64,000 bases of DNA from a virus: positions 1-64,000 of the IMG/VR virus record IMGVR_UViG_3300030060_004796; one strand, written 5' to 3'. The notes below the pieces were generated by a model. That model made no database searches and had not been told where the DNA came from. It was given only the letters and a program-made list of their open reading frames with translations. Positions 19,801-37,961 of this stretch are shown in pieces (the stretch's first letter is position 1; every line of letters starts with the position of its first letter). A program made the position numbers and the translations under genes.

Positions 19801-22204
19801 AGCAGATTGTACATTTGGAGGAAGTTTTTCTAACATTGCACAAATTCAAGCTATTGCGCAAGATATAATTACTGCTATTACACCGCCTCCTGTTTATTCA
19901 TGTCCACCTGGATGTGACTTAGTAACAACATCTGCAGGTCAATTTTATTGTGAATGTATTGATTATTTAGATCCTGAATATATTGATATTACATCACCGG
20001 TTAATATAGAGGATGATTTATATTTTAAAGATGTTTCATGGACAGTAAGTTACGATCCTAAATATAAAGCATGGATGTCTTTCCATGATTGGCATCCACA
20101 ACTAATGATTCCTAGTTTAAATCATTTCTTTACAACAAATACTTATGAAGATCTAGAATCACAGCCAAGTTGTCCTCCAGGATTTACTTGGAATCCTACA
20201 ACACAAACATGTTGTCAAACATACCAAGGAGAATTTGAGGCAGATATTATTGTTGATGAAGTTCCTGTTGAAATAGATATTGATTCTATTCCTTGTAAAA
20301 TAGATATTGTATTAGCTTTAGATGCATCAGGATCTATGGGTCTTGGAGCTGACGGAGCTAATGATAATTGGAATGCTGCTGAAATTTTTATAAATGAGTT
20401 TGTATTTAACCTAGCAGATGAAATGATTATAGGTAATATACAAATAGGATTAAATCATTGGTCTAATCCAACTTTTGCAGGTATTAATGCAGCTAGCGGA
20501 CTTAATCCAATTACAAATGATACATACCCATCAATAGGAAATGGAAATACAGATGTTATTGGTGGTGTTACATATACTTATGCACAAGCAGTAGTACCTG
20601 ATGGAACAGGTGGTTTATCTATGACTAATAATCCAAGATTAGTATATGATGCAAGTGGAAGTGCAGTAACAACACAGTTTTGTTTTGCAACTAATCCTCA
20701 ACAGGGTACTGCAACTGAAATGGCAGAAGCTTATCAGTATTCTCAAAATCAATTATGGGAGGTAAAAGCTTCTGCTCTAGGAGATAGAACATTAGATCCT
20801 GGATATAGAAGAATATTAGTTTTTATATCTGATGGTGGAGATTTTGTAACTCACCCACTTAATCCTGTAGCTAATCCACCAAACATGGATGGAACTGCAT
20901 TTGGTAATACAGGCGGAGGTGCTTTACATAGTCCTCCTAGTAGTGGTGGTGGAATGATAACACCACAAAATAATACTGTAGATTGGAGTAATAACAATGT
21001 AGGGGGTGCTGGAACAGATGCTCTAATTAATGGTCAACAAGTACATTCTCAAAATATAACTATTTTTGCAAGCAATGGAGGAGGTGCACCAGCTGCAGGA
21101 AGTCAAACTGGGTATGAAGCTGTTGCAAATTGTGCTACTTATGGAACTTGTAATAATATGTGGGATGTAGATACAGGTCCAGGATGTAATCCTTTACAAG
21201 ATTGCCCATCAACAGTTGCAAGTGCAATAAGTAGTAATTTATGTACACTTCCTCCTGTTTGTATTTGTCCTCCAGGATATGAAAGAATAACTAGCAATTT
21301 AGATGGTACTGCACCACCTCACCAAGTTTATAGTGATCTAGATGATTGTGAACCAGAAAGAGCTGGTATATGTAGAAAATTAGAATGTGAATGTGATGTT
21401 GCTAATTTACCAATACCAACTATTCCTACTACAACAACAGGAAACTGCCCAACAGATATTTTAAATGGAATAGCTTTATACTACAATGAAGACACTTTTG
21501 TAGGAGATCCATCTTGGACAGGATACTCTAGTAATCCTGTAATGTGTCATTATGATTATGAATGTTGTGTTGAAGGTACAACAATTAGAGGTGGAATATG
21601 GAAACATAATGATAGATGTGATTTATTTGCAAACTACTATGGTAAAAATTATCCATGGGAAGTTGAATGGGTAGAAACTGTTGGTCAATCCGTAAATACT
21701 ATTAGAAGTATTGAATATCAATTAGAGTCATATATTTATAAAGGTAACTTAGCAGATGATTGTGGTGACAGGTTCCATGATTTAGATTGGAATTTTGATG
21801 AAGCTATTATTCATAACACAGAACAAGTTTCTGGATTACTAAGATTTAATTTAGATCCAAAAAATAATGTACCTTTGATAACTGAATACCCAATAATTAC
21901 AGGTAATGATATTCAAATACTATATAGTAAGGTAGAACAAAAATATAGATTTAATCAGTTCTGGGATATTACAAGAGACAGAGGAGAGTTTGATCCTAAC
22001 TGGAATTCATCAATATTTATAACACAGTTAAACGGTTACATAAGAGATCTAAATCAAGCAAACTTAGATTACTTTAAACCTTCCTTACAACGTAAGAAGT
22101 TTAGACATTACTGGAATAAAGTAGTTCTTAGAAAAAATATTTCAGGTAATAGAAAAATGATATTTAAATTAGCTAATACAAAAATTAATGCATCCTTTAG
22201 ATAA
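13805..22204 (+). CDS. Tail muzzle / stabilisation protein (P22 gp10-like) with two inserted vWA domains
   Basis: N-terminal 'FVKGMTKD...NAINNS...LGNEPAN', internal 'SWTVSYDP...WMSFHDW' and C-terminal 'IWKHN...NYYG..YP' resemble crAss-like muzzles; MIDAS DSSNS at 18869 and DASGS at 20321. Confidence 0.75.
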   Translation: MAEKQNTPKLQNTSDIDTDVFVKGMTKDPDSSMITKEQWTHARNAINNSVDGDLGTLGNEPANKQCSSAPFTIIGAIHLYGDKWVLFSTNNQQSEIGTWDDSECKYERIVNDFSCYQCLEQLGGIEETPCLNFNTQHLITGASKENFDCSWQVYWDDGVNPSRTLNLDNIPWKQNVISDEGADCVIYEDAIPLCLDCEKIRLAPLIDIPCIELSKSVDGGQLRNGSYQVYIAYVINDQKIGDYYGISNIQPLFAHEDMLSGLEIKISNLDKEFEYYELVIARNTQGEQTAKQIGFYSTEQTNISIDYINEKLPSKPLGTLPLTTPAYERSDKMYVVNDYLIRQGPTEQFDFNYQPLANNIHVHYTVTEFPDDYYAKGGNKPTFMRDEVYSFFIRFVYNTGEKSASYHIPGRAPYNWPGITDPAGNNPNVLDPWPGNNDLGTALWNQNGGLGTADVDRLFEVHNTADDGWNPAGIASNTLELQTDDGGRVIREGHMAYWESTERYPQDPVRWGDLCGQPIRHHKMPDETTAYVGMFEDPTGATVVNPNNFLDRTGQNNATINVLGVRFTNIAWPRFNASSDELCGPDNGAPTGPRIPNIVGYEILVGSREGNKSIIAKGITRNMRRYNLPNTSTGHEIGTGNLTGYMANYPFNDCNADPYLSAGNDWTYTRNGGIVNPGGNYTAGDTATNIFTFHSPDTSFNKPFLSPYELKSYGICTGTQVGNFVKSEKHPQHKLLRNISMWIAIIVGAGYAIGEMRGKKNKKMIPPKALNVGLVGFGEQHGGNRTTIVNTPSTSFANGWTAIATTTSASFNENTTARSGGRQGSAAPYDDGSNVVGGVVTGAGTSTAPTWAPIGSLGRLDTDGDQFMMANYNTNLANPLTGINSGAGGQGVLLSTATVAGAPKLFHSGSRALGMNIGYEPNVRNNMRNWGPNRGYIGAGEEWTYEGTRFESMPSLTQILFGAYQFMMFTAEGGQVIIDLIYNLVSYQDYAWKYNSQGLYWSTQQRSAGGVFRQLVNKGRYVGSSMQNLTANIRINNVQRPKTVVINTVTNGADFDPIGTFDQSRFCIGPTSTGGILGAWFNPGAEVNSTIGAHYCALKTNFTNQYGQIDQIKQIPVGCITYFADQIKPEDDHSPRDLDDMLFTTDIVYGGDCYINRYSEKVIMPFFWDFQKDMPDGMPYDYKLRANVPRPVFWMDTKKFELSQLVRDIVNFGWLISQITGGGGGGLSNSLPSGLFVLDRPTGDLGGDDGTNQTTGAGGIGAPSGGGPGALANAPNMAVSATQDNNRRSIFHVVNGYMYTHCNGVNEFYCESPINTAFRDWEDVDEKRHYDRLEYTDVDALFHADIIKKDNYYKYDTSLSKSRFNTQLISYGFIQARDYDPLVAEDCYTHYPKRLMYSLQAQLEAKKDFWRVFLPYNYKDFKNKVNVIKPVSKSGAMILFPHLSPVLWQGVDQLETDLGTKLTIGDGGLFSQPPQAIVNADLPHEYGSCESARSVVNTPSGLFFISQAQGKIFQYTQGLTNIADQGMKQWFNKYLPSILLKQFPEMEHCDSWIDNPVAGVGCQSVYDPNYDLVYFSKKDFECTLPECIDYVPCEGFVYNHSKCENVEPQACCPEGDDPYNPYVFVPGGPTCPPGFAVVSCLNGSPCCTDYSGNPPFPATITEPTCERIITLPAEEDQSSGQVDIVFAVDSSNSVDGAIPQNVGNMQNFVRTMITELNINNGITNGDIRVGLIHFGGGRAVRFPLFNGQQSSLPNSDEMFEFANQITLTNSVPTLLNWIGNPGAWNGTFHPADYRSTYGAASNSIANGGPSYDLPYGTDILAGIWGGQNLLYGLGARACPKVLITIFDGPMGYKCDGGGVAGANNPLAGSAGAGFFYTNTPYSVGGITGPDTFNGMTVPDPALVAAGTPAISTPDIRWDDASLGGGYDPCFNTNQGFAQTANAYDAQWFETNVRAAGNYTQQVPFIQKNYSIVVDPQGSAPTATHIAYSERYAGGGGLLPADCTFGGSFSNIAQIQAIAQDIITAITPPPVYSCPPGCDLVTTSAGQFYCECIDYLDPEYIDITSPVNIEDDLYFKDVSWTVSYDPKYKAWMSFHDWHPQLMIPSLNHFFTTNTYEDLESQPSCPPGFTWNPTTQTCCQTYQGEFEADIIVDEVPVEIDIDSIPCKIDIVLALDASGSMGLGADGANDNWNAAEIFINEFVFNLADEMIIGNIQIGLNHWSNPTFAGINAASGLNPITNDTYPSIGNGNTDVIGGVTYTYAQAVVPDGTGGLSMTNNPRLVYDASGSAVTTQFCFATNPQQGTATEMAEAYQYSQNQLWEVKASALGDRTLDPGYRRILVFISDGGDFVTHPLNPVANPPNMDGTAFGNTGGGALHSPPSSGGGMITPQNNTVDWSNNNVGGAGTDALINGQQVHSQNITIFASNGGGAPAAGSQTGYEAVANCATYGTCNNMWDVDTGPGCNPLQDCPSTVASAISSNLCTLPPVCICPPGYERITSNLDGTAPPHQVYSDLDDCEPERAGICRKLECECDVANLPIPTIPTTTTGNCPTDILNGIALYYNEDTFVGDPSWTGYSSNPVMCHYDYECCVEGTTIRGGIWKHNDRCDLFANYYGKNYPWEVEWVETVGQSVNTIRSIEYQLESYIYKGNLADDCGDRFHDLDWNFDEAIIHNTEQVSGLLRFNLDPKNNVPLITEYPIITGNDIQILYSKVEQKYRFNQFWDITRDRGEFDPNWNSSIFITQLNGYIRDLNQANLDYFKPSLQRKKFRHYWNKVVLRKNISGNRKMIFKLANTKINASFR

Positions 22205-25200
22205 TGAAGAAACCAAACCTTAAATATAATTTACCTAGTTATTCTGAAAAGTTTTTAGAATCTCTTAATCCTAGGATGCAGGCGTTAAGATCCTCATTAG
22301 GTTATAGTGATTATTCTCCTTTTAGAAATGAACCTTTCATAGATATTAAAACTCCAACGGGTATGATAGATATGTCAAATACAGGTATTCCATTATATGC
22401 TAATGGTAGGCTTTTAGCTCCATATTCTGGATTACATAATATGGGAACAACAAACGTTAGAGAAATACCTGCACGTAACATAGAAAATTTTACAGTCAAA
22501 TTTCCATTAAAAAAACATTTAGATAACAAGTTTAGACTTAGTGGAAATGTAAATCCATCAATTAATCTTAATAGTCCGTATTTATTAGATCTATATGGTA
22601 GATTAAGAGGAGAATATAATTTAAATAAAAATGTAAATATTTTTGGAGAAGCAACTACATCAACAACAGATGGTGTTAGTATTAATCCAGCAACAATAAA
22701 AGGTGGTTTAAATATTAATTTCCAAGATGGTGGTCAGTTAATGAGAGCTCAATATGGAATAGAACCTTATTTAGCAGTTCAAGATAATACATATGTTGAT
22801 ATACCACCACCACCTCCAGCACCAACAAAAGTTATAGATCCATGGCCTCAAGGTTCATATAGACCAGCTGATCCAGAACCTGCATGGTATAAAAAATTAC
22901 TTAATGTTGTAGCTCATCCAATGGAGGCTTTTGGTAGAAGTATTGCTAATCAAGATTGGTGGACAGGTGACTTGGGACAAGGAATACCAATGAGTCCACA
23001 ACATAGTGCAAGTACTTTGGGTGGTTTTGATTTGCTCAATACATTTGTTAATCCTGCTAGTTGGATAGAAGATGTAACTGATTCTGAATCTTTAGGTGAA
23101 GGTGCCCTTAATACAGCAATGATATTACCTATTTTTAAAGGTGGTAAAGTAATTAAACATGCAGATGAAGTTGTTGATGCTTCAAAACAAATAACTAAAG
23201 GTTCAGGTAAAGTAAAAATAGAAGATCCAAATGCATTATATAGAGTAGTAGATGTTCCTGTGGGAACAAGTGCAGATGAAATAGTTAAAGCTGCAGAGTA
23301 TGGCACAACAATACCAAAAGTAACAACTACAGGAAGACGTACAGGATATTCACAATTACAAAGAGAAACTCCTTTTGATGTATTAAATACTACTAGTAAT
23401 CAAGGATGGATTTTAGGTAGAGGAACAAATGATCCAGGTAATTTACTAAATTTATATGGAGGAAAAAATCCTTATGTAATAAAGATGGGTAGAGGAAATC
23501 CTTATGTAGGAGCAGAAAGTCTTAGTGCTATTAATCAAAGAACAGATATTTTAAGAAATTTTACTTTTCCATACACTCAAAATGTAGGAAAATGGAATCC
23601 ACTTAAAGGTCAATATGATTTACCTTTAGAACTGGGTGCAGGTGTATATACAACAGTTGGAAAAAGTGTAGATGATCTTGCCAAGATAATGCCAGGATCT
23701 ATTGTTAATCCTAATATGGTAAGTAGAGGTAGCAATAATATTACTACAATATTTGGTCCAAAAGGTTTTCAAGTTAGACAACCACAAGAAGTTTTACCAA
23801 TGAGTGAATATATAAAACGTGTAGGAAATAATCCTAATTTTAAATTTAATCTAGGAGGATCATTACCAAAAGCACAAGAAGGACCAGGCACTGATAATGA
23901 AAGATTAGATGCACATTCACTACATCCTGTTGCATCTCAGTCAAACTGGAAAGATTTACTAAGTTATAATATTAATCCATTAAATTGGCCTAATATTTTT
24001 AAACATAGTATAACAAGACCAGCTGAAATAGCTTTTCAAGGAGGGATAAATGAATGGTTAGCTGCAAATGTAAGACCTGGTGAGTATCCAAATATACCAC
24101 AATTAATAGGTGAACTTGAAGGTGGAAACCATTATATGAGAAGTATTAAAAATCCTGGTGGATATATTATGAATCAGGTAGATTCAGAGCCTTGGACAGA
24201 TAAGCAGGGAGATTTAACAATTGATGAAGAAGCTTGGAGAATGTCTTTGGGATTACCTGGACAACCTGGAGACATACCTAATAAATATATATTTAAATCA
24301 GATAATGTACCTTCTATAGGTGCAAATGAAGGAGATGTTTTTTATACTACAGATTTATTTGATTGGGATAAAGCAATTAATAAATTTAATAATCTAAGAA
24401 ACGAGTATGGTACAGAAGACTTTGATTTTTCTGATGTAGAAAATTTTAACCCAGCACAACGTTCTAGGGATCTAGACACTGAATATTGGAAGAAAAAAGA
24501 AGAGTATGAAGAAAGCATGAAGGATTCAGATGAAGAAATAGATTTTCATAGTACAGAAGAAGCTAAAATATTAAGGGAACAAATTAAAAACTTTGAGATG
24601 ATAAAAGGATATCACAAAGTACTAGATAAAAGTGGACAACCAATTCCTAATACTTATAGTTTTGTAGGAGGAGGATCTGATTATATAACGGATAGGGGGT
24701 TTGAAGAAGGCCACACCTTAGATCCTTTTGCAAATCTTACAATGAGTATGGGGGAAGATGATAAAGGTAGATTTATATCTTATTATGATAAATATGATTT
24801 TGATAGTCCAATAACTAGGAATTTTATAACTCCTATAAATTTCTATGATAAAAGATATATAAAACAAAATGATGATGGACAATGGATAATAGATCCAGAT
24901 CTAGATCCAGATCAACCAAGGAAACAAGATGGTGGTGGTGTAGACTTTAGCTCACTTCAAAAAGGAATTAAATGGGTTGAAAGTTTAAATGGTGAGTTAA
25001 TGAAAAATACACAATCATCTGCATCAGGTTACTATGGACAACTTTTTGATGAAATAGAATATGATGGAACAAGAGATGAATTTATTGCTGATACAACTTT
25101 TCAAGATGAGCTATTTAGAAAAAGAGCACATGGTGAAATTGAAGGTGTCCCAGGATTAATATCTAATGGAATAGAACTAGCAGAAGAATATAAAGATGTA

Positions 25201-28200
25201 GATCATGGACTAACTACTTTAGAAATAGCTGGTTTATCTAATATGCTAGGAAGACAAGGAACAAGAGAATATCTTGGAAATGTTATAAGAGATGGTAGAA
25301 CACTTGCAAATGTATTTCCACATTTATATGGAGATGATGTAAATCAAGCAAATAAAACACCTGATGAATATATTCAAAAGTTTAATGAAGGCCTAACAAA
25401 AAGAGAAGGTGGTGAATTTTTAAATAAAATAAGAAGACTAAATCAACAATTAAAAATATATAACTCTGGTGGTAGAATATCTCCACTAGCAAAAAAAGAA
25501 TTGATTGATCTAGAAATGATTAAACCTAAAATGCAAGGTGGAGGGTCAGTTCAACAAAGTTCTTATGTAACTAAAAGAGGAGATAATCTAAGTAGGATAG
25601 CTAGAAATAATAATATGACATTATCTGAGTTATTAGAATTTAATCCAAGATATTTAAATAACCCAAGTGCAATAGGAGTTGGAGATGTTATACAATTGTC
25701 TGATGCACCAGTTCAAAATAACTCTACACCTAATATGGTGTATGAAGTAAAGGGTGGAGATAGCTTATCAAAAATAGCAAGTCAATATGGTATAAGATAC
25801 CAAGATATTGCAGCATTAAATAATATAAATGATCCTACTAAAATAATGCCTGGACAGGTTATAAGACTTCCAGATAATGCTGTTGTTAGAGGATCTAATG
25901 TAACACAACAACAACATAGAGCACATTCAGTATATATACCTAGTCAAAGTAATGTTATTGTAAATTCAAATACTGGTACAAATGAAGTGTGGGCTAAAAG
26001 AGAACTAGATTCTGATGGAAATTGGAAAACTACAGGTAAACGTGCTTTAATCAATGAAATAAATAAAGATACTCAAGCAAATAGAATTGTTAGAGGTATG
26101 AATGATGTTGCTGAATCTGAAACAATAAATTATACAATTCAGAGTGGAGATATGCTAGGTAAAATAGCACGACAAAATGGTGTATCTGTACAAAAATTAA
26201 TGGAGGATAACAATATCACTGACCCTAGAAGAATACAACCGGGTCAAGAACTTACAATAAATAAGTCAACAGGAAATCCATATATTATTGTGGATGAAAA
26301 AGCTGGAAGAATGCATGTATATTATCCAGGAAATTCTGATCCAGTAAAGAGTTATCCTATTGTATCAGGATTAAATGAAGGAGATGCACAAACTAAAACA
26401 GTGATTAAATTCTTTAAGGATAATGAAGAAATACCACAAGAAGAACTTCAACCACTTATGGATAAACATGGTTTTGATGAGGTTGGACAAATTACATCTC
26501 TTCCAGGATATACTAGTGAAACAATGTGGGATCTTGGAAACAAATCAACGGGTGCTGGTGTTTACACTATTGATGCAGTAAATGAAAAAACTAAATATAT
26601 GGGAAATTCTTCTTCATTTGTATTAGCAAATCAAGCAGGTGATAGACCTGGTACAGTAATACACTCTACACCCAGTGCAAGTATGACAGGAAGATTAAGA
26701 GCATTAGATGAGGGTATGTCAGGTGATGAAGCTAGAGCATTAGGTATTGGTACAAATGGATGTATAAATGGAACTTGTAGTGCAATGACAGAATTATTTG
26801 AAAATCCTGATATAGGTAATGGAACACAAGTGTTTGTATTACCTGAATGGGAGGGAGATAACTTTGTATATGAAAATGGTCAAATAAACTTTTATACAAG
26901 ACAGTCAAATGATGAAAGATCAATGACATATGAAACAGAAAGCGGTCAAGTAATGGTGAATCCTCAAGGGTTAAATGAAACTCCAGGAAATAAGCAAGGT
27001 AATTATAAACCTATTAATATTACATTTGACAAAGAATACTATCAAAATAATTCTGAAAGATATGATGGAAGTGCTGACAATGAGAATGCAGAATTTAAAA
27101 AACATACACAACCATTTTTACAAGCATTGACAGGTAATAAAAAAACCATGATGGATAAATTTGGAATGGATGGAGATACATATAATGATCTGTCTATGAT
27201 TGCTTTTGGAATTTATGCTTATGAAAGTGGAATGGGAGATATTAATAGTAGTCTTGAAAATGCAACAAAATTTGCAGCAAAAGCTGGAGGTATGGGTCAA
27301 ACTAATCCAGACGTAGTTTCTAAATACAATACATATGGTTTAAGAGATCAAGATAATAGTATAGGTTTTACACAAATACAATGGCAATGGTTAGATGAAG
27401 AAGAAAAAGAAATGTTAGGGAAATTAGATATTGATGAATCTAACTATGCGGAACATTTAATGGATCCTGCAAAATCTGCAGATGTAACAATGGCTATATT
27501 ATACAACCGTCATAAAAATAATCAATCTGCAGTAAATATAAGAAATGATAAAGCTAGAGAAGAAGCAATAGCTAATGGTGAAGAATTTAAAGACAGTGAT
27601 AAAGAAGTTTATGATCCTTTTCTATATCTTCCAAAAACCTGGAATAAAGCGGATGGATATACAGATATGGTAAATAAATATACTGACTACATTACTGTAA
27701 CAGAAACAGATATTGATGATGTTGATAATAGTGTGATTGTCAAAGGAGAATACTCTGATGATAATGAAGCATATAACATAAGAGAAGAACTGAAAAGACA
27801 AGAAAATTTACATGGCCCTAATGCAGATTGGAAAAGTAAATCTACACAAATTATTGAAGATGTAGGTGATTTCCTTGGTGTAGATGGTTACACAGCTGAT
27901 GAAGGTGTAGTAGGAGATGTTCTTGACAAAGCTATGGACTATGTTGGAAAGGACGCAAAAGATGTAACATTTGGTAATATAGCATCAGATGTTTATGATG
28001 TAGGTGCGCAAGCAGTAGATAGAACTATAGATTCTGTTGTTGATGGTTATCAAGCTGTAACAAATGCTGCATCAGATGCTGCTGATGCTGTTGGTGAATG
28101 GTGGGATAATGTAGATTTGAATCCTCTTTGGAAACTAGGAGGAGAGTTTGGAGTAAAAAATCAAGTACAATTTTATGATGACTATATCAGTGGTGTATAC

Positions 28201-28332: not shown

Positions 28333-28340
28333 CTCAAATA

Positions 28341-28372
28341 TTAGCAAATCTCATGATTATTTAGTATATTAA
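28341..28372 (+). promoter_or_regulatory. Putative late promoter TTAG-N20-TATATTAA
   Basis: Same architecture as 1381-1412; in the 59-nt gap before 28392. Confidence 0.55.
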
Positions 28373-28391
28373 TAAAGTAAACTGTAACTTA

Positions 28392-31300
28392 ATGTTTTAT
28401 TATAACAATCCATATATTAAAGGTTTTGAACACGGTGGTGAGCACTGGATGAATGTACTTGGTGAAGAAGTTGATCCATCTGACATAACTACTGATGGAA
28501 TTTACTTTAAAACTGATGCTGATGGTATGCAATCTAAACATGTATATTCAAGAGGTGCATGGCAACAAGGAACAGGTCCTAGTAGTAGTAATAATAACAA
28601 TAATAATACTCAAAACAATCCTCCCAATAATACACAAAGTAATACACAAAGTAATACACAAAGTAATACACCAACTGAAACAGAAGAAGGAGTTTATGCT
28701 GATCATGATGATGCTTATGATTATAAAGTAATTGATGGTGTTTGGTACACAAGAAAAAAAGGATCAACAGAAGAATGGATTAGTTTAGCTGAAAATGAAG
28801 AAGCTACAAATAAATTAAATTCAGCATATCCAGAAGCAATAAGTACAGACAATGCTACAAATGATGACGAAAAAACAGATGATGATATTGTAGAAGAAGC
28901 AAATAAAAATATTGAAGGAGATAATAATGCTGTATATTATGATGGAGAATTTAGATCTCCTGAAGAAGCTAATTTATTATCTGGTGTAGGTGACACAGGT
29001 TTATTTGATTTAGTAAAGGCTATAGATACAACTTACGATAGCTTTAAGGATGAAAACTATTATGATCCAGGAACAAGAATGGATTATATGAAAATAGATT
29101 TTAAAAATACATCAGGTGAAGGGTTGTATTTTGATGAAGAAAGATTTTCTAAAAATCCTAATAAACCAGGTAGTTTTTTAATAGATGAAGAGCAGGCACA
29201 AGAACAGGACATGCAGCAGTTTCTTGATGATAGACACAAAAGAAATCCAAAATTATATTCTAAAGTAAAAGATTTTGACATAGATCTATATAACAAGACA
29301 GGACACCTAGACTATAGAAAAGGATTATTTAACAGAAAGCATGAAGGATTCTTAGGAGATCAATTAGAAAATAAATATGGAGACGCTTCACATATAGGTT
29401 GGACAATGGATAAAATGGGTAACTATGAAGATGCATTTGATTACTTAACACAAAATCCTGATGACCCAACTAAATTTAATCAACAAGATTTTGATGATGG
29501 ATTTGGAGGTATACCATTTGATCCTAACAACCCTTTAAATTATGACTTAAGTGATGAGTATAGAAATAGTCCAAAACATAATCCATATATAGAATATGGT
29601 GATCATGATAATCCTAATATAATTCAAAACAAAATGGGAGATGGAAGGTATAGTAAAGTGCCACAGTTTCCACTTACACCAGAATCTCCTGACTTTATTC
29701 AACCAGATCCTAAATCAGATCCAGATCCAGATATTGAATCAGATTTAAATATTAAAAGTGCAGAAGATATTGCTGCAGAAGAAGAAGCAAAAAAACTAAA
29801 AGAACAACAGTTAGACTATATAGAAGAACAATTAAGAAAGTCACAGAAAAAACAATATGGTGGTATGTTTCAAAATGGAAGTGGTAGTTGGTTAGATAAC
29901 TTTAGTACAGAAAACATAATTAAACGTTTTTCTCCAAACACTCATAAAAAAATAAAAAATGTAGAAAGTCAGTATGAAGGATATAGTAATCCAGATGCAA
30001 ACCGTATTTTAAATATGTTTCTAGGAAATGATGCAAACTATGAATTGCAAAATGTAGATGCATATAATTTAGATGCTGATATAGTAAATACTAATACAGG
30101 TAAAGTAGATGAAAAATTAACAAACTTTGCAATGAGAAATATTGGTAATGCAAAAGATTTAAATAATATTTATCAAGATTATAATTTAGATAATGCTAAT
30201 TCAGTATGGGATTGGGCTAACCCTTTCTTTTTCAATGATGATGCATCAGACAATAGAGAAACACTTTATGATGTAGCAACTGATATTTATAAAACATATC
30301 CTAATGAAGTAAACAGACATTGGGTAAATTTGAGAGACAAAACATTACAACAAGTAGATGATGCATGGGTAGAAGGAAGAGATAATGTTGTTAATACAGT
30401 AGATGATGCTTGGGTAAATACAAGAGATACTGTATCAAATACAGCAAAAGATGTTTGGAATTGGGCCACTGATTGGCAAGATGGTGGTGAACCAACATAT
30501 CAAGTAGAGGTTATTAAATACCCTCTTGGTTATAAAAATATGCCACCAGGTCACATTGAATCAAGAATATTAAATCCAGATAGTTTACCAGAAAAATACA
30601 AAAAATTAGATAAAGATGGTGATCCAATTTATAAACCATATTTAAATGCTTGGATTAGTGGAAATAAAAAAGTAAGATATAATGCAGATGATGATTATAC
30701 ATCTGGTATACAAACACTTATCTTAAATCTAAATGAATCAGATTTAAAAAAATATATGAATACAGCTCAACAAAGTTCAAGGGGTGAAAGTATAGATACA
30801 TGGTTTGGAAGTATACCAACAGCATGGGGTGGAGGTCCAGGTGACTATGATTTTATAACTAATAATTGTGCAGATCAAACGTGTACAGCATTTGGATTAA
30901 ATGAGTCTGCATATACAATGGGAGGAATAACAACACCACAACAAGTATTTGATGCACTTCAGGAGGATCCAAGATTATTGGCAGGATCAATAAAAGGAAA
31001 TCAAACAAATCTAGAAAGAGTGGGAAAAGGTATTCATGGTATTACAAATCTATATAAAGTACCATGGAATATGGGTAAACATTTAGTTAATAAAACTGGA
31101 GAAGGGATAGATTATATAGAAGATAATACAGATCTTCAATTTGACTGGGAAGGTGTTAAGAATATTCCTGACTATCATTATGATAATTGGATTCAACCAA
31201 CTGGTGAGTTTATAGAAGATACTTATGAAGATACTAAATCAGGTCTTAGAGATGTAGGAAATGCAATCAATAGTTTCTTTGGAGGTAGCAGTAGTTACTG

Positions 31301-32429
31301 GAAGCAGGGTGGAGAATTACCTAAGTATCAGTTTGCAGGTTCTCCCTTTAGTGTGCAAAATCAACAAGGTATTTTACAAGGAGCAAATACAGGATATGAT
31401 CTATATGGTAATCAAATAGAACCATTTAAGTTTGGTAATCTTTCAGTATCAAATCCTAACTTATCATTGACAAATTCAAACTTAACAACACCTCCTGAAA
31501 AGACTGAACCATTCTTTAACTCTGAGGATAGAATGTTTGCATATAATCAATCTGTAAATAGATCAATGGATGAATGGGATGCATTTACTGCAGATATGAA
31601 TGATAGAATACAAAACCCATCTTTAATCCAAACAGAAACAGATATACTACAAACTCCTTCATTAGAGATTGACCCTAATCTACAAAAAGATATGGAACTT
31701 AGATCAGATATGTTTGACCATAGGTTACAAAGAACTGATCCAGATGCATGGATGAGAAAAAAGAAAAAAGAAATGAGGGATAGTGAAAGAGAGTTTAAAA
31801 AGAATATGGAAGATCTAAGAGATGATATGCCTAAATATGAAGGTACAAGAAAGAATCTAAGAGATTATGAAAAAGCTAAAGAATTAGGTTTTGAAGATGA
31901 TTTCTCTGATCCGGATGATCCTAAGTTTATGATGGCAGAATATAAAGACTATCTTAAAAGTGAAGAAGAAGAAGATCTTAGAAGAGAGTTAAGAGAAGAT
32001 CAATTAAATGAAGATAACAAAGATAGAGGTATGTCATTTGGAGATAAAGCATGGGCAGGGTTTAATAGATTTATGGATAGTAAAGGTGTTCAAACATTTA
32101 GTAAAATTGGACAAGGTGCAGTAAGAATAGCTAAACCTTTAAATAGTATTATAGAAAATTACAGATCAGAACAGCAAAAAGATAGTATGATGAAAAATGC
32201 ATATCTATCAGACAATATGTTTGCAGCTAAAGATGCAGATATAACAGGAAGTAAAGGAGATTATGATGCTAACACAGGTATATTTAGACCAGATGATAAA
32301 GTAGTAGTTGGTCAAACTTATGCAATGCATGGTGGTGAGCATATATATAACAGAGGAGGAGAGATGGAAATAGATATGAATACATATAAACAATTAGTGG
32401 CCGCAGGGGCAGAAATAGAAATTATATAA
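28392..32429 (+). CDS. Internal cargo polyprotein containing a permuted papain-like Cys peptidase module
   Basis: Acidic, modular 1345 aa; 'PGHIES' (H 30552) precedes 'YDFITNNCAD' (C 30867); six GG linkers. Confidence 0.65.
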   Translation: MFYYNNPYIKGFEHGGEHWMNVLGEEVDPSDITTDGIYFKTDADGMQSKHVYSRGAWQQGTGPSSSNNNNNNTQNNPPNNTQSNTQSNTQSNTPTETEEGVYADHDDAYDYKVIDGVWYTRKKGSTEEWISLAENEEATNKLNSAYPEAISTDNATNDDEKTDDDIVEEANKNIEGDNNAVYYDGEFRSPEEANLLSGVGDTGLFDLVKAIDTTYDSFKDENYYDPGTRMDYMKIDFKNTSGEGLYFDEERFSKNPNKPGSFLIDEEQAQEQDMQQFLDDRHKRNPKLYSKVKDFDIDLYNKTGHLDYRKGLFNRKHEGFLGDQLENKYGDASHIGWTMDKMGNYEDAFDYLTQNPDDPTKFNQQDFDDGFGGIPFDPNNPLNYDLSDEYRNSPKHNPYIEYGDHDNPNIIQNKMGDGRYSKVPQFPLTPESPDFIQPDPKSDPDPDIESDLNIKSAEDIAAEEEAKKLKEQQLDYIEEQLRKSQKKQYGGMFQNGSGSWLDNFSTENIIKRFSPNTHKKIKNVESQYEGYSNPDANRILNMFLGNDANYELQNVDAYNLDADIVNTNTGKVDEKLTNFAMRNIGNAKDLNNIYQDYNLDNANSVWDWANPFFFNDDASDNRETLYDVATDIYKTYPNEVNRHWVNLRDKTLQQVDDAWVEGRDNVVNTVDDAWVNTRDTVSNTAKDVWNWATDWQDGGEPTYQVEVIKYPLGYKNMPPGHIESRILNPDSLPEKYKKLDKDGDPIYKPYLNAWISGNKKVRYNADDDYTSGIQTLILNLNESDLKKYMNTAQQSSRGESIDTWFGSIPTAWGGGPGDYDFITNNCADQTCTAFGLNESAYTMGGITTPQQVFDALQEDPRLLAGSIKGNQTNLERVGKGIHGITNLYKVPWNMGKHLVNKTGEGIDYIEDNTDLQFDWEGVKNIPDYHYDNWIQPTGEFIEDTYEDTKSGLRDVGNAINSFFGGSSSYWKQGGELPKYQFAGSPFSVQNQQGILQGANTGYDLYGNQIEPFKFGNLSVSNPNLSLTNSNLTTPPEKTEPFFNSEDRMFAYNQSVNRSMDEWDAFTADMNDRIQNPSLIQTETDILQTPSLEIDPNLQKDMELRSDMFDHRLQRTDPDAWMRKKKKEMRDSEREFKKNMEDLRDDMPKYEGTRKNLRDYEKAKELGFEDDFSDPDDPKFMMAEYKDYLKSEEEEDLRRELREDQLNEDNKDRGMSFGDKAWAGFNRFMDSKGVQTFSKIGQGAVRIAKPLNSIIENYRSEQQKDSMMKNAYLSDNMFAAKDADITGSKGDYDANTGIFRPDDKVVVGQTYAMHGGEHIYNRGGEMEIDMNTYKQLVAAGAEIEII
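28629..28670 (+). repeat. 12-bp tandem repeat aatacacaaagt x3.5 (NTQS)
   Basis: Directly visible in the sequence. Confidence 0.9.
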
Positions 32430-32432
32430 ATT

Positions 32433-35400
32433 ATGAAAGTAAAAATAAAAAAATTACCAAAAGGTTTTTCCATGCATGATGGAAAAGTGTACAAAGACGG
32501 GGGTACAACAGGTGATCAATTTAACTATGGTTTAGTGGGAGTTCCTTCAACAGGTTCTTCAAATGCTTCTAATCCATTTAGTTCAGTTAATTATTCTCTA
32601 AACCCTGTGCCTAGAGAAGAAGCAAACCTTGAAGCAGAAAAAGGTGAGACAGTATTAACAGATATGAACAATGATGGAAATTTTGAATTATACAACATCA
32701 CTGGTAATAGACATAGTAGTGGAGGTACCCCGTTAAACCTACCACCACAATCTTTTATTTATTCTGATACAACTTCAATGAAGTTAGATAAATTTGAGTT
32801 AGCAGAAATGGGATTAACTTCTCCAAAAAAAATTACCCCTGCTAAAGTTTCTCAAAACTTTCAATTAAATAATTTTATTGCATTACTAGATGATGATCAC
32901 ACTGATAATATAACAAGAGATACTGCAGAGTATATGTTATCAAAAAATAAAAAATCATTATCTCAATTAGCATTTTTACAAGAAGCAAAGAAAAAATTTG
33001 AAGATGGTGTTCCATTAGCTGCATATCCATATCTACAAGAGAAGGGATTAAATCCTTTAGAATTTTCTCAAAAAATTCAAAATATATCACAAAAGGAAGC
33101 AGAGCAACAGATGATGATGCAACTTCCTATTGAGCAACAAATAGAAATTTTAATGGCTAAAAGACAAGCTGCACAACAACAACAAGCTATGCAACAACAA
33201 CAAGCTATGCAGCAGCAAGGTATGGTACCACCAAGTCAAGGTGGTCAAATAGGAATGCAGGGTGAAAACATTCAAGCTGAAGCTATGATGCCTCAACAAG
33301 GAGGTATGCCACCAATGGCACCACCTCAAGGAATGATGCCTCCAATGCCACCTAATATGCAACCTAACATGCAGTCTAATATGCAACCAGCTATGGCTAG
33401 ACGTGGAGGTCAGCTATCTCACCTACTACCAAAAGCTCAAAACGGACTAACAGAATTTACAGCACAAGCTCCAATATATAATGCAGTTGGTGAGTGTGTT
33501 ATGAACTGTAGACAAATAAACGTTCAACCTGTAGCTGATTTTGAAATAGGTGCTGGTATGTCTGCAGGTAAAATAGGTGATGAGTTCACAGGCTCTGGAA
33601 AACTTACATCAGGTTTTTCATTTAATCCTAATATGGGACAAGGTGGTCTTGATGCTTATATTGGTGGTAACATAGGAGGAAGAGCAACATCTGTTAATCA
33701 AGATGATGTTACTTTAAGTCCATTTGCTAATCTAGTAGCACGTGGAGGATATTCTGGTCATTTACCTCCAGTTAATTTTAGAAATAGACAAGGCTTACCT
33801 TTTGGTCTGGGAGCTTTTTATAATAAAAGCTTAATGGGTAATGAAGGTAATGTTTTTGGAGGATACGGTCAGTTAGGTAACTTCAATATTACTGGAGGAT
33901 ATAATTTTGACACTAATAGCCCACAGTTTACTGCTGGTATTGGAATACCTATTAGACAAAAAGGTGGTGAAGATTTTGAACCACATATGATGTATGATCC
34001 AAAATCAGGAAAAGGTTTTATGGCAAACACTTATGAAGATCATTTACGTATGAAAGAAATGGGCTATCTTCATCAAGAAGAAATGAGAAATGGTGGGTCA
34101 TTACCTTCTTATCAAGATACAGGAGAAACTGGTAACTGGGAAGGTGATCTTTCTTTAAACTTTGGTGATACAAATAGACCAACAGTGTTTATGTCAGGAA
34201 GAAATATAACATCAAGTGGAACAGATGGTCAAACTGGATTTGGTGATATGAATGTTGATAAATACCGTGGTTGGAATTTTGGACTTAATCCTAATGCAGA
34301 AGGAAAAATGCCATGGGGTTGGTACGATCATGATACTGATACAAGGTTTACATCAGATATGGATTTAAGTCAGTATACATTTGACAGATCAAATACTAAG
34401 ATGAATTTTGATAGAAGTATGGGTATAAATAAATATTCTACAGATCCAGGAAATAGAAGTAGAATGTATGCAGAAGGTAGACTTGGTGCTGGATGGGGTG
34501 TAGGTAATGTTTGGGATAGAGTATTTCCTAATTCTCCAGATAATAATTTAATGGAGTCAAAACATGTTCATTATTTAAATCCTTATCTAAGTGGTGAGGC
34601 TGGTATAGATATTGGTCTTAATAAGGACAATGAATCATTAGGATTAAAAGGAACATATAATACAGGATGGAGTCCATATGGAAAAGGATTTGGTATAGGT
34701 GCTAATTTTAAATCAGACAACTTTGGAGTTAATATAGGAGTTGATGATCTATTTAGAGGTAATCAACCTCAGTTTGGTATGTCATATAATTTTAGAAAAG
34801 GTGGTCAACCATTGCGTAAAGCACAAGGAGGTATGGATATTAAGTATGATATATATAATAGAAATATGCTTAATAACGTAATACCAGCTGATAAAACAAG
34901 GGTTGCAGTAAAACCTCCTATATTACCTTTAATAAATAATGATCAACCTGTAATAGAACCTGGTACTCAAGGAAGTATTAATAGTCCTATTGTTCAGAAT
35001 ACTGAACAAATTTTGGACAATATGCAATCATCATATGAAAATCAGTTAGCTACTTATCAGGCAAATTATCAGAGTCTTATGAATCAATACCAGACTCAGA
35101 TGAATAGTATGATTCCTCCAGCAAGTCAACAAGCTAGTTTACTTGGAGCAACAAACTACCCTGATGAAAGTAAGATTGCAGTTTGGGAAACTCATATTGA
35201 GAATGGTGGACCACCACCAGAGAATCCAGATATTAATTATACAACAGCGTATAAGAATGTGTATAATAAAGATTTTGAACCTGAAGAAAAAAATGATAGA
35301 TCAAATAGACCTATTAATAATATAACAAATGTATATGATCAACAAGATCCAGATGCAGGAAATCAAAGTCAAGGCCCTCCAGGAATGGGATACCCAGGAA

Positions 35401-37961
35401 CAAACCTTCCTGCAGGAAATAATAATGATGACGGAACTATAGCTGGAAGAGCAAAAGGTTTACCACTTGATTACACAAATACAGATAACCCTTATTATGT
35501 AGGTGCTAATTGGATGTTCCAAAAAGGTGGAGATATAGATTTAGCTATCCAAGTAAAAAAAGACAAAGAACTTTTAGAAAACAGTTCATGGTGGAATGAT
35601 AATATTTGGGGTCCTACAAAAAATTACTGGAATAGAAGTAGTTGGGGTGATATGATAGGTGATGCAGGTGTTGGTATGATGGCAAAAATGATGCCTGCGA
35701 CATTAATTTCAAATTTTCTTCCTAATTATGCATTTAGTCCAACATATAGAGATTATGTAAATCCTATGATTGATGGTATTAAAGATGAGTTTGTAAAAGA
35801 TAAAGGTATAAGTAATTGGGAACTAATTGAAAAGCAAAAAGATTTTCCTGAACAAAAAAGAAGAGGTGGAGGACTACCTAAAGCTCAGTATAACTTTAAT
35901 ATGGATAATGTAGCTGCGTCAGATAGTACATATGTTAATATGCCAACTGTTGGTGCATATAATATACAAACTAAGCCTACATATGAAATAGGACAGAATT
36001 ATGAAGAGTTAGTAAGTGAATATAATCCTCTTGGTACCTATATGGGTGATATGAGTAGTTACAATGCAGGAACAATTGACAGAACTGATAAAGACAAACA
36101 AATGGATAAAATGGCAATGATGAATCCTGTATCAAGTATTGGTGTAGGATTAAATGCTATTTATGATGGATTGTTTGGTAGTCAATATGGAGGATCATTT
36201 GCAGGTGGTGGTGAGCTACCAATAGCTAAAAAAGGTATTGAATACAATGGTAAAACATACAGTAAAAGAGATCTAAAGAAATTAAAAAATAGTAAAGATC
36301 CTGTAAAGATAGATTTGTATAATAAAATCATGGGTATTGATACAAGAAATCAACAAGAAATAGCTAATGACCAAACACAGAACATCAACCAGATGCGTGA
36401 AAATATTGAAGGCTCAACTACTGTAACAGACTTAACAGGTGGTACAGGAGACTGGGGTGCTTGGTATATGCAAGATGGTCAATCTGAATATAGAGATCAA
36501 AGATATGAAGCATATAAAGCTAGACGTGAAAGTAAAGGTCTAGATGTATTAGATCCAGAAGAATTCCATAATGTATATGTAGAGTTCCAAAAACAAAATG
36601 CATGGCTTGAAGCAAATTTAACTCAAGAAGAAAGAAATGAGAAGAATTGGGATCAAAGTAGAACCTATGGTAAAAATAAAAGATACCAAGAATCTTTAGA
36701 CGGTTCAGGATTTACACCTTTATCTGATGACATGATTAGTCATGTTCAATCAGGATATATTGGAGGTGTTGCATTAAATAAAATGAACGAAGATAATCCA
36801 GATGGTAACATCACTAATTATATGCAAAGTGGTGTGGATGATCAAACTGTATTTGGAATGTCTATATCTCCAGAAGATGGTGTATTTGGTAATACAACTA
36901 ATGATCAAAGAGAAAGTATTTATACAGAAGAAGTTGTAGATCCACAACAGTGTGTTAATGCAGAAGCAATGCAAGCTGCTTGTACAGAAATTGGAGGTAC
37001 ATGGACACCATTTAATGAAGAAGATGGAACAGGTTGTAATTGTGATAAGCAAATTCCACCAGACAAGATTCCACCTCCTCCAGAAAAGAAGCAAACACCT
37101 TTCTGGTTACAAGATGAGCTAGGTTTAGCTAATGCAATGGATACTAAGATGAGTCTAAAGAAACGTTATCCTTGGGCTCCAACTTATGATCAACCTCAAA
37201 TTGATGGTGTATTTAAAGATCCAACAAGAGAAATTGCTGCAATTGGTGAACAGGCTGCTATAGCATCTGAAGCTGCAACAGCATTTGGTGGACCAAGGAG
37301 AGCTATGACTGCTGCTCTTGCTGCACAAGGTAAAGCTAGTACAGCAATTGCGGATGCTATAAATAGAGTTCAAAGTGACAATGTTACTATTGCTAATGAT
37401 ATTAATACTAAGAATGCTGAATTTGAATATAAAACTCAAATGTTAAATAACAATGAGTTAAAGCAATTATATGATAATACAGTATTAACTGAAGAGAACT
37501 ATGATAATGCACTTAGAAAAGCTAATGCAAATATTACAGCGCAATTACAGAATGCTTATACTAATAGAGCAAATACAGCTAATCTAAATAGTATTTATCC
37601 TCAGTTTAGAGTAACACCAGAAACAGGTGGTTTTGTTGAAATTACAGATCCTAAAGCATTTTATGCTAATCCTAATGATGCAATAGATCCTGCAACTTAT
37701 GATGAACAATATGTAAAAACTATTGAGATGCTTAGAAAGAATAACGTTCCTGAAGATCAATGGCCAAAGTATAACAACCCTGGTTTAAATAAAACAGGGA
37801 ATACTACTTGGGCTCAACAGAATGCAGGTGCTATCACTAATTCAGGGTATCAAGGAGGAGCTCCAACAGCATCTTACGGTAGAGAAACAAGAAAAAGAAA
37901 CAGAATACTTAAAAAAGGGGGACAATTAAGAAATTGGTTTTCTCCATTAAGGGGTGATTAA
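32433..37961 (+). CDS. Internal cargo polyprotein: conserved N-terminal domain, two beta-barrel-like modules, helical C-terminus
   Basis: N-terminal 'EAEKGETV...GNRHSSGGTP...SFIYSD' resembles crAss-like cargo proteins; two amphipathic beta-strand modules; ten GG linkers. Confidence 0.65.
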   Translation: MKVKIKKLPKGFSMHDGKVYKDGGTTGDQFNYGLVGVPSTGSSNASNPFSSVNYSLNPVPREEANLEAEKGETVLTDMNNDGNFELYNITGNRHSSGGTPLNLPPQSFIYSDTTSMKLDKFELAEMGLTSPKKITPAKVSQNFQLNNFIALLDDDHTDNITRDTAEYMLSKNKKSLSQLAFLQEAKKKFEDGVPLAAYPYLQEKGLNPLEFSQKIQNISQKEAEQQMMMQLPIEQQIEILMAKRQAAQQQQAMQQQQAMQQQGMVPPSQGGQIGMQGENIQAEAMMPQQGGMPPMAPPQGMMPPMPPNMQPNMQSNMQPAMARRGGQLSHLLPKAQNGLTEFTAQAPIYNAVGECVMNCRQINVQPVADFEIGAGMSAGKIGDEFTGSGKLTSGFSFNPNMGQGGLDAYIGGNIGGRATSVNQDDVTLSPFANLVARGGYSGHLPPVNFRNRQGLPFGLGAFYNKSLMGNEGNVFGGYGQLGNFNITGGYNFDTNSPQFTAGIGIPIRQKGGEDFEPHMMYDPKSGKGFMANTYEDHLRMKEMGYLHQEEMRNGGSLPSYQDTGETGNWEGDLSLNFGDTNRPTVFMSGRNITSSGTDGQTGFGDMNVDKYRGWNFGLNPNAEGKMPWGWYDHDTDTRFTSDMDLSQYTFDRSNTKMNFDRSMGINKYSTDPGNRSRMYAEGRLGAGWGVGNVWDRVFPNSPDNNLMESKHVHYLNPYLSGEAGIDIGLNKDNESLGLKGTYNTGWSPYGKGFGIGANFKSDNFGVNIGVDDLFRGNQPQFGMSYNFRKGGQPLRKAQGGMDIKYDIYNRNMLNNVIPADKTRVAVKPPILPLINNDQPVIEPGTQGSINSPIVQNTEQILDNMQSSYENQLATYQANYQSLMNQYQTQMNSMIPPASQQASLLGATNYPDESKIAVWETHIENGGPPPENPDINYTTAYKNVYNKDFEPEEKNDRSNRPINNITNVYDQQDPDAGNQSQGPPGMGYPGTNLPAGNNNDDGTIAGRAKGLPLDYTNTDNPYYVGANWMFQKGGDIDLAIQVKKDKELLENSSWWNDNIWGPTKNYWNRSSWGDMIGDAGVGMMAKMMPATLISNFLPNYAFSPTYRDYVNPMIDGIKDEFVKDKGISNWELIEKQKDFPEQKRRGGGLPKAQYNFNMDNVAASDSTYVNMPTVGAYNIQTKPTYEIGQNYEELVSEYNPLGTYMGDMSSYNAGTIDRTDKDKQMDKMAMMNPVSSIGVGLNAIYDGLFGSQYGGSFAGGGELPIAKKGIEYNGKTYSKRDLKKLKNSKDPVKIDLYNKIMGIDTRNQQEIANDQTQNINQMRENIEGSTTVTDLTGGTGDWGAWYMQDGQSEYRDQRYEAYKARRESKGLDVLDPEEFHNVYVEFQKQNAWLEANLTQEERNEKNWDQSRTYGKNKRYQESLDGSGFTPLSDDMISHVQSGYIGGVALNKMNEDNPDGNITNYMQSGVDDQTVFGMSISPEDGVFGNTTNDQRESIYTEEVVDPQQCVNAEAMQAACTEIGGTWTPFNEEDGTGCNCDKQIPPDKIPPPPEKKQTPFWLQDELGLANAMDTKMSLKKRYPWAPTYDQPQIDGVFKDPTREIAAIGEQAAIASEAATAFGGPRRAMTAALAAQGKASTAIADAINRVQSDNVTIANDINTKNAEFEYKTQMLNNNELKQLYDNTVLTEENYDNALRKANANITAQLQNAYTNRANTANLNSIYPQFRVTPETGGFVEITDPKAFYANPNDAIDPATYDEQYVKTIEMLRKNNVPEDQWPKYNNPGLNKTGNTTWAQQNAGAITNSGYQGGAPTASYGRETRKRNRILKKGGQLRNWFSPLRGD
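33102..33395 (+). repeat. Gln/Met/Pro low-complexity tract
   Basis: QQQQAMQQQQAMQQQGMVPP...PPMPPNMQPNMQSNMQP; the DNA repeat caacaacaacaagctatg occurs twice. Confidence 0.85.

Follow-up and report, generated by a model that had tools for sequence, protein, structure and literature searches.

The first 64 kb (positions 1 to 64,000, hereafter the window) of IMG/VR record IMGVR_UViG_3300030060_004796, a single viral record of 120,198 bp from an uncultured marine crAss-like phage, was found to encode three modular cargo-type proteins whose joints carry a short conserved peptide. These proteins, denoted W1 (22204-28332; 2042 amino acids, aa), W2 (28392-32429; 1345 aa) and W3 (32433-37961; 1842 aa), lie on the plus strand, as do all features within them described below. 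Judged by homology to proteins of related phages, they are strings of swappable modules, with the peptide, a Gly-Gly (GG) dipeptide followed by LPKAQxG, marking the joints and with modules exchanged there, both between phages and among the three proteins. It is tentatively proposed that the peptide combines a Gly-Gly hinge with an LPKAQxG docking or address tag.

A bipartite motif in W1, W2 and W3

A first-pass annotation of the sequence had listed 23 GG sites in the three proteins, and translation of their open reading frames (ORFs) confirmed a GG dipeptide at each of these. Eight of them had been described as bipartite, with GG followed by an L(P/M/R)-type element, and the pattern GG-x(0-5)-L[PMR]x[AY][QK] recovered the same number of copies (GG at residues 176 and 551 of W1, 973 of W2, and 325, 554, 790, 1145 and 1258 of W3), against a mean of 0.02 and a maximum of 2 when the residues of the three proteins were shuffled 5000 times. 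The bipartite form had also been reported as missing from three giant proteins encoded downstream; this was confirmed, and a six-frame search of the window and of the complete genome (120,198 bp) gave no copy outside W1-W3. The supposed enrichment over background GG frequency held strongly for the bipartite form and only mildly for plain GG (60 observed versus 43.2 expected in W1-W3, Poisson p=0.009), of which the excess was stronger still in a muzzle-like protein of 2799 aa that has no LPKAQ tag (50 versus 27 expected). The signal is therefore the bipartite motif and its context, and not GG alone.

Regarding this context, junction GGs were found to be preceded by an aromatic residue or Met and then a basic residue or Gln, in the order leading to x-GG-(E/Q/S). 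Glu, Gln or Asp stands directly after GG at 14 of the 23 listed junction sites versus 2 of 31 other GGs (Fisher p=3e-5), a difference to be read with the limit that the listed sites may have been chosen on such features.

A logo of 218 non-redundant instances gave [F/Y/K][K/Q/R]xGG[S/E]LPKAQxG[L/I][E], with information confined to positions -6 to +8; the motif of approximately 15 residues is thus a conserved island within unconserved flanks rich in Gly, Pro and Asn. Many of these instances were obtained by pattern search, which inflates the frequencies of the core, while the flanks and a homolog set collected independently of the motif are unbiased. The most constrained residues (L, P, A, Q and G) all lie downstream of GG. 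The Lys position was found to be variable (K, M, I, S, R, L, T, Q, E) in the motif-independent homolog set, and both a Lys-Gln cross-link and an anchoring role for this Lys were rejected on that ground.

Codon choice at the motif was identical to background usage, indicating that selection acts on the peptide. DNA microhomology hubs for module shuffling, one of the functions suggested earlier for the linkers, are consequently disfavoured as the conserved function, and a DNA recombination hub was rejected since the motif codons vary as in background; an internal Shine-Dalgarno sequence arising from GGAGG was rejected for the same reason.

Position of the motif at module joints and exchange of modules

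The ends of BLAST homology blocks were mapped using 82 homologous proteins and 116 motif-bearing ORFs of other contigs, with 65 homologs compared for W3 and 17 distinct ones for W2 (one more W2 hit was to the fragment of the window itself and was not counted). At least three block ends were found within 15 residues at 17 of the 23 listed sites, with unlisted GGs mostly having none or one. The earlier placement of GG sites at domain boundaries therefore stands for these 17 and is poorly supported for W1 residues 1069 (two block ends), 1089 and 1113 (0-1 block ends each); sites W2 15 and W3 1829 are too close to a terminus for this count, and W3 23, near the N-terminus, just reaches three. For W2 and W3 together, a listed site is found no more than 15 residues away for 189 of the 323 internal block ends, while random placement of the sites (2000 trials) gave a mean of 49 and a maximum of 148, these counts being descriptive as the homologs are not independent.

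The joints of W1 were placed at residues 176, 551, 910, approximately 1069 and 1979 (block ends at 174, 562, 905-913, 1058/1072 and 1969-1979), those of W2 at 490, 698, 973 and 1314/1322 (block ends at 491-498, 693-700, 971-973 and 1306-1322) and those of W3 at 325, 511, 554, 790, 1032, 1145 and 1258. The bipartite motif is found in W1 as FQDGGQLMRAQYG (22720-22758, residues 173-185) and FNLGGSLPKAQEG (23845-23883, residues 548-560, with a block ending at 562-563), and in W2 as WKQGGELPKYQFAG (31299-31340, residues 970-983, with 13 block ends within 15 residues). In W3 it is found as ARRGGQLSHLLPKAQNG (33396-33446, residues 322-338, 27 block ends), MRNGGSLPSYQDTG (34083-34124, residues 551-564, 17 block ends), FRKGGQPLRKAQGG (34791-34832, residues 787-800, 17 block ends), KRRGGGLPKAQYN (35856-35894, residues 1142-1154, 7 block ends) and FAGGGELPIAKKG (36198-36236, residues 1256-1268). 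The last of these copies stands immediately ahead of the C-terminal module (1268-1842), which together with the N-terminal module (1-338) constitutes the conserved part of W3.

Several joints of the window retain only the GG half (KQDGG, WQDGG, RQKGG, FQKGG and WKLGG). Some of the GG-only joints are decayed copies of the full motif; the W2 sequence WQDGGEPTYQ was found to align with RKQGGELPKAQTG of a relative.

The view of these proteins as modular strings with exchange at the joints was borne out by the recovery of modules in other proteins and in another order in related phages. The W2 module 695-985 was found within W1-type proteins of other phages and the W3 module 320-512 within W2-type proteins, W1 1-177 (the stretch up to the first motif) was found fused to a W2-type body in the relative P0091, and module order was found to vary among W3 homologs.

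A predicted boundary could be compared with the motif at one joint. In an AlphaFold2 model of the W3 C-terminal region (34-sequence alignment, mean predicted local distance difference test, pLDDT, of 62), pLDDT remains below 50 up to the motif and a confident fold begins right behind GGGELPIAKKG, in keeping with the expectation that domain boundaries and motif positions coincide. A fold search with this model returned generic long-helix matches in the PDB and weak rows only in BFVD.

N-terminal variants, joints lacking GG and C-terminal tails

The LPK half of the motif was also identified at natural N-termini, where it begins seven residues from the initial Met (W3, its relatives and, as ...NLPSYSE, W1). 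The N-terminus of W3 reads MKVKIKKLPKG (32433-32465, residues 1-11; family consensus MKVxIKxLPKG), and relatives begin with MKKKIKIKGLPKAQLG or MLKKVRIKRLPQAKTGF, all with the LPK half and without GG. W1 begins with the variant MKKPNLKYNLPSYSE (22204-22248, residues 1-15), to which the start of P0091 is identical, and W2 with the degenerate variant MFYYNNPYIKGFEHGGEHW (28392-28448, residues 1-19), at the place of which W2-type relatives have MF.YNNPY...LP.FQ.GE or ...GGSLPQAQNG. At the joint ahead of the conserved W3 C-terminal module the tag is kept in orthologs regardless of the module upstream, and in some of these GG has been lost with LPLAKRG (LPxA[KQ]xG) or LLMAQRG being kept.

Close to the C-terminus of each of the three proteins there is a junction-type GG with a short conserved tail behind it. 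In W1 this is a tail module after WKLGG (28138-28329, residues 1979-2042), which is found at the C-terminus of many carriers of the motif and for which 13 block ends lie at 1969-1979. W2 ends with GGEMEIDMNTYKQLVAAGAEIEII (32355-32426, residues 1322-1345) and W3 with LKKGGQLRNWFSPLRGD (37908-37958, residues 1826-1842). The W2-type tail is strongly conserved, with the consensus GGE(M/I)EIDMNTYKQL(I/V)AAGA(E/Q)IEI(I/L), and a similar ending (...ELHDDEIQKLIDMGYTVEYLD) was observed in a cargo protein of the related phage L245. In the cargo block of that phage (4639-10001), proteins were also found to contain two Pfam mini-domains that are seen elsewhere in large DNA viruses, DUF5872 and DUF5754, and one protein of this block ends with YKRRGGGYRKAQNG, a variant of the junction tag. 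Head-to-tail docking of the tails on either side of a gene boundary was modelled as a complex of the C-terminal 76 residues of W2 and the N-terminal 80 residues of W3, and the prediction scored 0.05 without an answer, which counts neither for nor against such docking.

Genomic setting of the cargo-type proteins

The assignment to crAss-like phages follows from a homologue of the portal protein gp20 of crAss001 in the genome (113,498-116,270; 2.7e-21). BLASTP also identified similarity of the 2799-aa protein (window 13805-22204) to the crAss001 muzzle protein gp44, of a 5193-aa protein to gp47 and gp50 (associated with the RNA polymerase, RNAP) and of a 1850-aa protein to gp49. W1-W3, together with a protein of 1138 aa, lie between the muzzle homologue and the virion-RNAP homologues, a slot which in crAss001 encodes the cargo proteins C1 and C2 (PMC10172136). 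W1 was further found to contain three LysM repeats and a YkuD (L,D-transpeptidase-like) domain (25558-26838, residues 1119-1545; Pfam LysM 2.3e-40, YkuD 4.9e-6), LysM proteins being the only matches of W1-W3 among PDB sequences. Due to this synteny and these cell-wall domains, W1-W3 are referred to as cargo, and they are probably packaged in the particle. Searches of 17 motif carriers against Pfam and PHROGs remained almost blank.

A hinge and docking tag as the favoured reading

Under the proposal favoured here, W1-W3 would be beads-on-a-string virion cargo or ejection proteins in which each module, the first included, is preceded by the approximately 15-residue peptide [F/Y/K]-[K/R/Q]-x-G-G-x-L-P-K-A-Q-x-G-[L/I]. 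The linker that holds this peptide would be flexible and adjoin the following folded module at its N-terminal edge, with Gly-Gly acting as a hinge that closes one module and LPKAQxG as a small knob recognised by a component specific to the clade. Candidates for this component would be proteins of the virion or of its assembly, for example in the portal, the capsid interior or the tail rings; a factor of the host envelope encountered during ejection is a more remote candidate. The role of the tag would be to load the cargo, keep it in order or thread it. As the same tag is found on every module, swaps between proteins or phages would keep function, which would explain the shuffling of cassettes. 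A packaging or threading signal had been named as an alternative in the first-pass annotation, and it is this alternative that is now preferred, on account of the conserved island and of the LPK N-termini lacking GG. A conserved island in unconserved flanks is usually regarded as the signature of a docking peptide. We infer both that the motif is bound rather than cut and what kind of partner it would have.

A more specific version, in which the tag is a repeated cargo-address peptide and a clade of marine crassviruses loads and orders megadalton amounts of modular effector in capsid and tail by multivalent docking of GG-x-LPKAQ-x-G knobs on a 12-fold or lattice receptor, is conceivable and rather less than probable. 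Were the address reading true, the receptor could be, for example, the portal wing or the capsid interior, any tagged module would become injectable cargo, and the tag could be used for loading foreign proteins into phage particles.

Several points weigh against the proposal of a docking tag. No binding partner of the tag was identified. GG-only joints are still module boundaries, hence the GG half must have some role of its own. The sharply defined context of junction GGs (E/Q/D next at 14 of 23) is not needed for a hinge and would also suit a protease site, and the N-terminal leaders and short conserved C-terminal tails past GG would equally fit removable propeptides. Furthermore, homology of W1-W3 to the crAss001 cargo families was detected neither with Pfam (PF25725, cargo protein 1, and PF25712, cargo protein 2; no match in the genome at E<=10) nor by profile comparison (hhalign probability 0.2-0.5, not significant).

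Little is understood of the way in which tailed phages package and inject very large proteins, and to our knowledge only one crassvirus virion structure exists. A conserved tag at the edges of cargo modules predicts the places at which cargo is docked or cut, accounts for the recruitment and shuffling of new effector modules, and provides a sequence rule for finding injected effectors in the genomes of uncultured marine phages.

Possible Gly-Gly processing and the search for a protease

Alternatively, the cargo may be made as polyproteins that are cut at or next to GG by a phage or host protease, as had originally been put forward; this seems unlikely, though far from negligible, and it is similarly doubtful that such cutting, within the capsid or once the cargo has been ejected, would set free separate modules along with short leaders from the N-terminus and tails from the C-terminus. 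In favour of this reading, the linkers that hold the joints are flexible and stand at domain edges (17 of the 23 GG sites at block ends), their GG context is consistent, and unrelated enzymes (LysM, YkuD, NlpC/P60-like) are strung together. In every protein the leader before the first motif and the tail after the near-C-terminal GG resemble T4-type propeptides. T4-type head proteases are known to remove propeptides, and papain-like viral and ubiquitin-type proteases to cut after GG. Processing has also been predicted for the polyvalent proteins of other phages (PMC5512222).

However, conservation of the motif continues for eight residues past GG and is at its strongest in that part; GG is missing from the N-terminal copies and from some orthologous joints, and no natural C-terminus ends in GG. 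Self-cleavage is unlikely since the motif has no Ser, Thr, Cys, Asn or Asp nucleophile. Eight Pfam protease families were searched for in the complete genome without a match, namely the Gly-Gly cysteine proteases PF00770 (C5 adenain), PF02902 (C48 Ulp1), PF03412 (C39) and PF05903 (C97 PPPDE) (none at E<=1), the head-type proteases PF03420 (T4 gp21, S77), PF04586 (HK97, S78) and PF00574 (ClpP), and the zincin-like MPTase PF18818. Given this lack of a cognate protease in the screen, together with the N-termini and joints without GG, the earlier claim of Gly-Gly-directed cleavage into separate effectors is not supported. A divergent protease that escaped detection, or a host protease, is possible; if a still-unknown protease does cut at the tags, it would represent the first maturation protease system in Crassvirales.

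The sole papain-like module is found in W2 (30486-31028, residues approximately 699-879), between WQDGG and WKQGG. It has a permuted arrangement, with a His (PPGHIE) ahead of an Asn-Cys pair (NCAD), and His32 and Asn136-Cys137 (module numbering) were invariant in 10 sequences. An AlphaFold2 model was confident over residues 10-190 and was matched by VIA-align to the T6SS peptidoglycan hydrolase TseH (6v98, Z 7.0), the MARTX RID acyltransferase (6.7), YiiX (6.2), the C92-like peptidase 3kw0 (5.7) and DeSI-1 (3.9), with Aichivirus 2A and PLAAT4 as further structural matches. All of these are permuted papain/NlpC-P60 folds, matched with modest scores, and the best Foldseek match was TseH (E 0.11). 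On the basis of this model the module belongs to the permuted papain-fold NlpC/P60 superfamily (YiiX C92, TseH, LRAT, PPPDE) and is probably a cell-envelope enzyme; as the fold spans cell-wall hydrolases, acyltransferases and isopeptidases, it does not by itself assign a protease role. The grouping with TseH, YiiX and acyltransferases counts against Gly-Gly processing, as does the presence of the module in just 4 of 50 motif-bearing records (2 of 14 near-complete ones), owing to which it is not a general enzyme for the tag. In some relatives the module was observed within W1-type proteins.

No report of processing was found in the literature on crassvirus cargo and cleavage, and the two crAss001 publications mention no proteolysis (PMC6235969, PMC10172136). 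The crAss001 gel published in 2018 shows bands of approximately 270 and >300 kDa, comparable in size to the giant RNAP-associated proteins, the identities of the bands not having been recovered (PMC6235969). These giant proteins of crAss001 lack the tag.

A possible passive hinge or translocation ratchet

Exchange of modules exactly at these sites, among W1-, W2- and W3-type proteins and with varying module order, would also be expected if the motif were a fold-neutral linker that travels with cassettes and has neither partner nor protease. Polymorphic toxins and T-even adhesins are known to have conserved junction peptides that bound their exchangeable cassettes, which adds to the appeal of this explanation. 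Nevertheless, such a passive hinge kept by descent is improbable: L, P, A, Q and G hardly vary across >200 instances although synonymous codons have drifted to background usage, and the motif is retained in places where there is nothing to link, namely at extreme N-termini and on small single-module proteins. That it persists because recombinants breaking within the motif are the viable ones appears comparably implausible, the shared DNA being too short and too variable for homologous recombination.

Least probable of all is a translocation ratchet, in which the tags would be epitopes for a host periplasmic factor that keeps the unfolded chain from slipping backwards on its way out of the tail: regularly spaced tags with disordered flanks on very long chains that leave via a narrow channel, modules that include periplasm-acting enzymes, and colicins, with their Tol- or TonB-box epitopes in disordered domains, would speak for it, but there is no host genome or candidate receptor, and the clade-specific nature of the motif contrasts with the broad conservation of host envelope factors.

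Distribution of the motif

Using a back-translated DNA pattern, at least 119 IMG/VR contigs were found to carry the motif, and 116 pattern matches on IMG/VR contigs were in frame in a long ORF with typical flanks. The 50 motif-bearing records that were checked are pieces of genomes of approximately 110-125 kb (CheckV completeness). In each of the 14 near-complete genomes the hits share a strand and form a block of <=13 kb, with a reversed-pattern control giving 0 hits. This restriction to one clade fits a clade-specific receptor.

Searching bacterial genomes (596 Gb) with the DNA pattern gave mostly chance matches in short GC-rich frames. The few real matches look like phage contigs binned into metagenome-assembled genomes (MAGs): typical tagged cargo ORFs were observed on CBDHFF010000001.1 (L156; 120,283 bp, from a 'Rickettsiales bacterium' MAG) and on L160 (labelled Clostridium sp.), both of which look like crAss-like phages. 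The former is equal in length to the longest contig on record for the W3 homologue P0004, the locus of which, on a 120,283-bp contig, has the order of cargo genes of the window. No motif-bearing relative and no cultured member was found when W2, W3 and two other carriers were compared with 50,697 phage records by TBLASTN, LPKAQ is absent from Cellulophaga phage phi14:2 and from crAss001, and a full-text literature search returned no published description of the motif, the occurrences of LPKAQ being unrelated.

In related phages, small basic or membrane proteins that stand alone were also found to have the tag close to the N-terminus, so that it serves as a tag in addition to being a linker. 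Among the small basic tagged proteins (L080, L104, L089, L112, L120), some have one transmembrane helix and two to three tag copies, while others end in ...KGSGSNGVL, resembling the C-terminal GxxGPNxL tails of small basic proteins of the present genome.

Comparison with known systems

The crAss001 cargo proteins C1 (gp45) and C2 (gp46) occupy the same genomic slot as W1-W3 (PMC10172136; PDB 7qog and others; Pfam PF25725, PF25712). The N-terminus of gp45, MAKKKIKRRGKMPP, resembles the MKVKIKKLPKG of W3, and gp45 has five sites of aromatic-GG-x-L type (phi-GG-x-L) that are similar to the junction GGs of W1-W3. Two segments of gp45 were resolved by cryo-electron microscopy, residues 214-245, docked on the tail barrel, and residues 425-552, docked on the portal wing (PMC10172136), and these start right at GG209 and GG427. 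The authors of that structure treated gp45 as one chain threaded through the portal (PMC10172136). Unlike W1-W3, gp45 has no LPKAQ half, is 842 aa in length and contains no enzyme modules, and the likeness is one of analogy and not homology, as profile comparisons were insignificant. Weak leads were obtained from an Atlas feature search (a cargo-protein-1 cluster at rank 7, 0.87) and from BFVD hits with E >1e-3.

The most conserved module of the W3 family, W3 1-340 (32433-33452), contains ...NLEAEKGETVLTD...FIYSDTSKMKL and was observed to align by eye and with hhalign (E 0.29, not significant) with the portal-binding domain of gp45 (...NLVEQGEVVYDDYVFSDRMEIP). Going by this alignment, the module may be a distant portal-docking domain.

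The nearest known kinds of system are polyvalent proteins (PMC5512222) and the head-protease processing of T4 and phiKZ, neither of which describes the tag. Polyvalent proteins of phages and conjugative elements are giant, multi-domain and delivered with DNA, and release of their domains by embedded peptidases has been predicted (PMC5512222). In that work (Iyer et al. 2017) no conserved linker motif is given and the word 'linker' is missing (PMC5512222), and the hallmark MPTase was not found here. W1-W3 do show the polyvalent-type make-up of many unrelated domains in one polypeptide, and synteny alone suggests their delivery with the DNA.

T4 internal proteins and phiKZ inner-body proteins are cut by a head protease (gp21 at L/I-x-E and gp175 at S/A/G-x-E, respectively). 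Like W1-W3 as viewed here, they are packaged and ejected proteins with a short consensus peptide and N-terminal targeting leaders; however, they are cut inside the capsid, while W1-W3 carry another motif and are accompanied by no detectable S77/S78 protease. Gly-Gly cysteine proteases and their substrates comprise adenain, African swine fever virus pS273R with pp220/pp62, Ulp1 with SUMO, and C39 with double-glycine leaders. Their substrates share with W1-W3 a GG at the edge of a folded unit after hydrophobic and basic residues. The hydrophobic residue of W1-W3 is one position further from GG than in adenain and ubiquitin-type sites, and the LPKAQxG that follows GG has no counterpart in these substrates.

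Encapsulin cargo-loading peptides and the T4 capsid-targeting sequence are short peptides that direct cargo into a shell of the HK97 fold. The tag of W1-W3 is similarly a short conserved peptide on otherwise unrelated cargo, but is repeated internally at module edges, with shell binding being putative, whereas the encapsulin and T4 signals occur once, at a terminus. Exchangeable cassettes are also delimited by VENN of CdiA, DPxGL of Rhs and the glycine-rich motifs of T-even gp38 adhesins. The W1-W3 motif resembles these in being a short conserved peptide that bounds such cassettes; it differs in being repeated on virion cargo, as opposed to marking a single toxin or adhesin boundary or forming a structural scaffold.

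A mini-module shared with a T4-like myophage

Between two junction GGs of W3 lies a mini-module of approximately 40 residues, EDFEPHMMYDPK...GYLH (33969-34091, residues 513-553). This mini-module was also found, without flanking GG motifs, in gene 20 of the Methylophilales myophage Melnitz (L242:5155-6543), a T4-like phage of an OM43 betaproteobacterium, and was the only match of W3 in 50,697 phage records (TBLASTN). W3 and Melnitz share 58% identity over it, with the pattern (E/D)DF.PHMMYDPK.GKG..A.T.E.HLRMK.MGY.H, and it was seen to recur in several crAss-like cargo proteins. The His/Met-rich nature of the pattern suggests metal binding.

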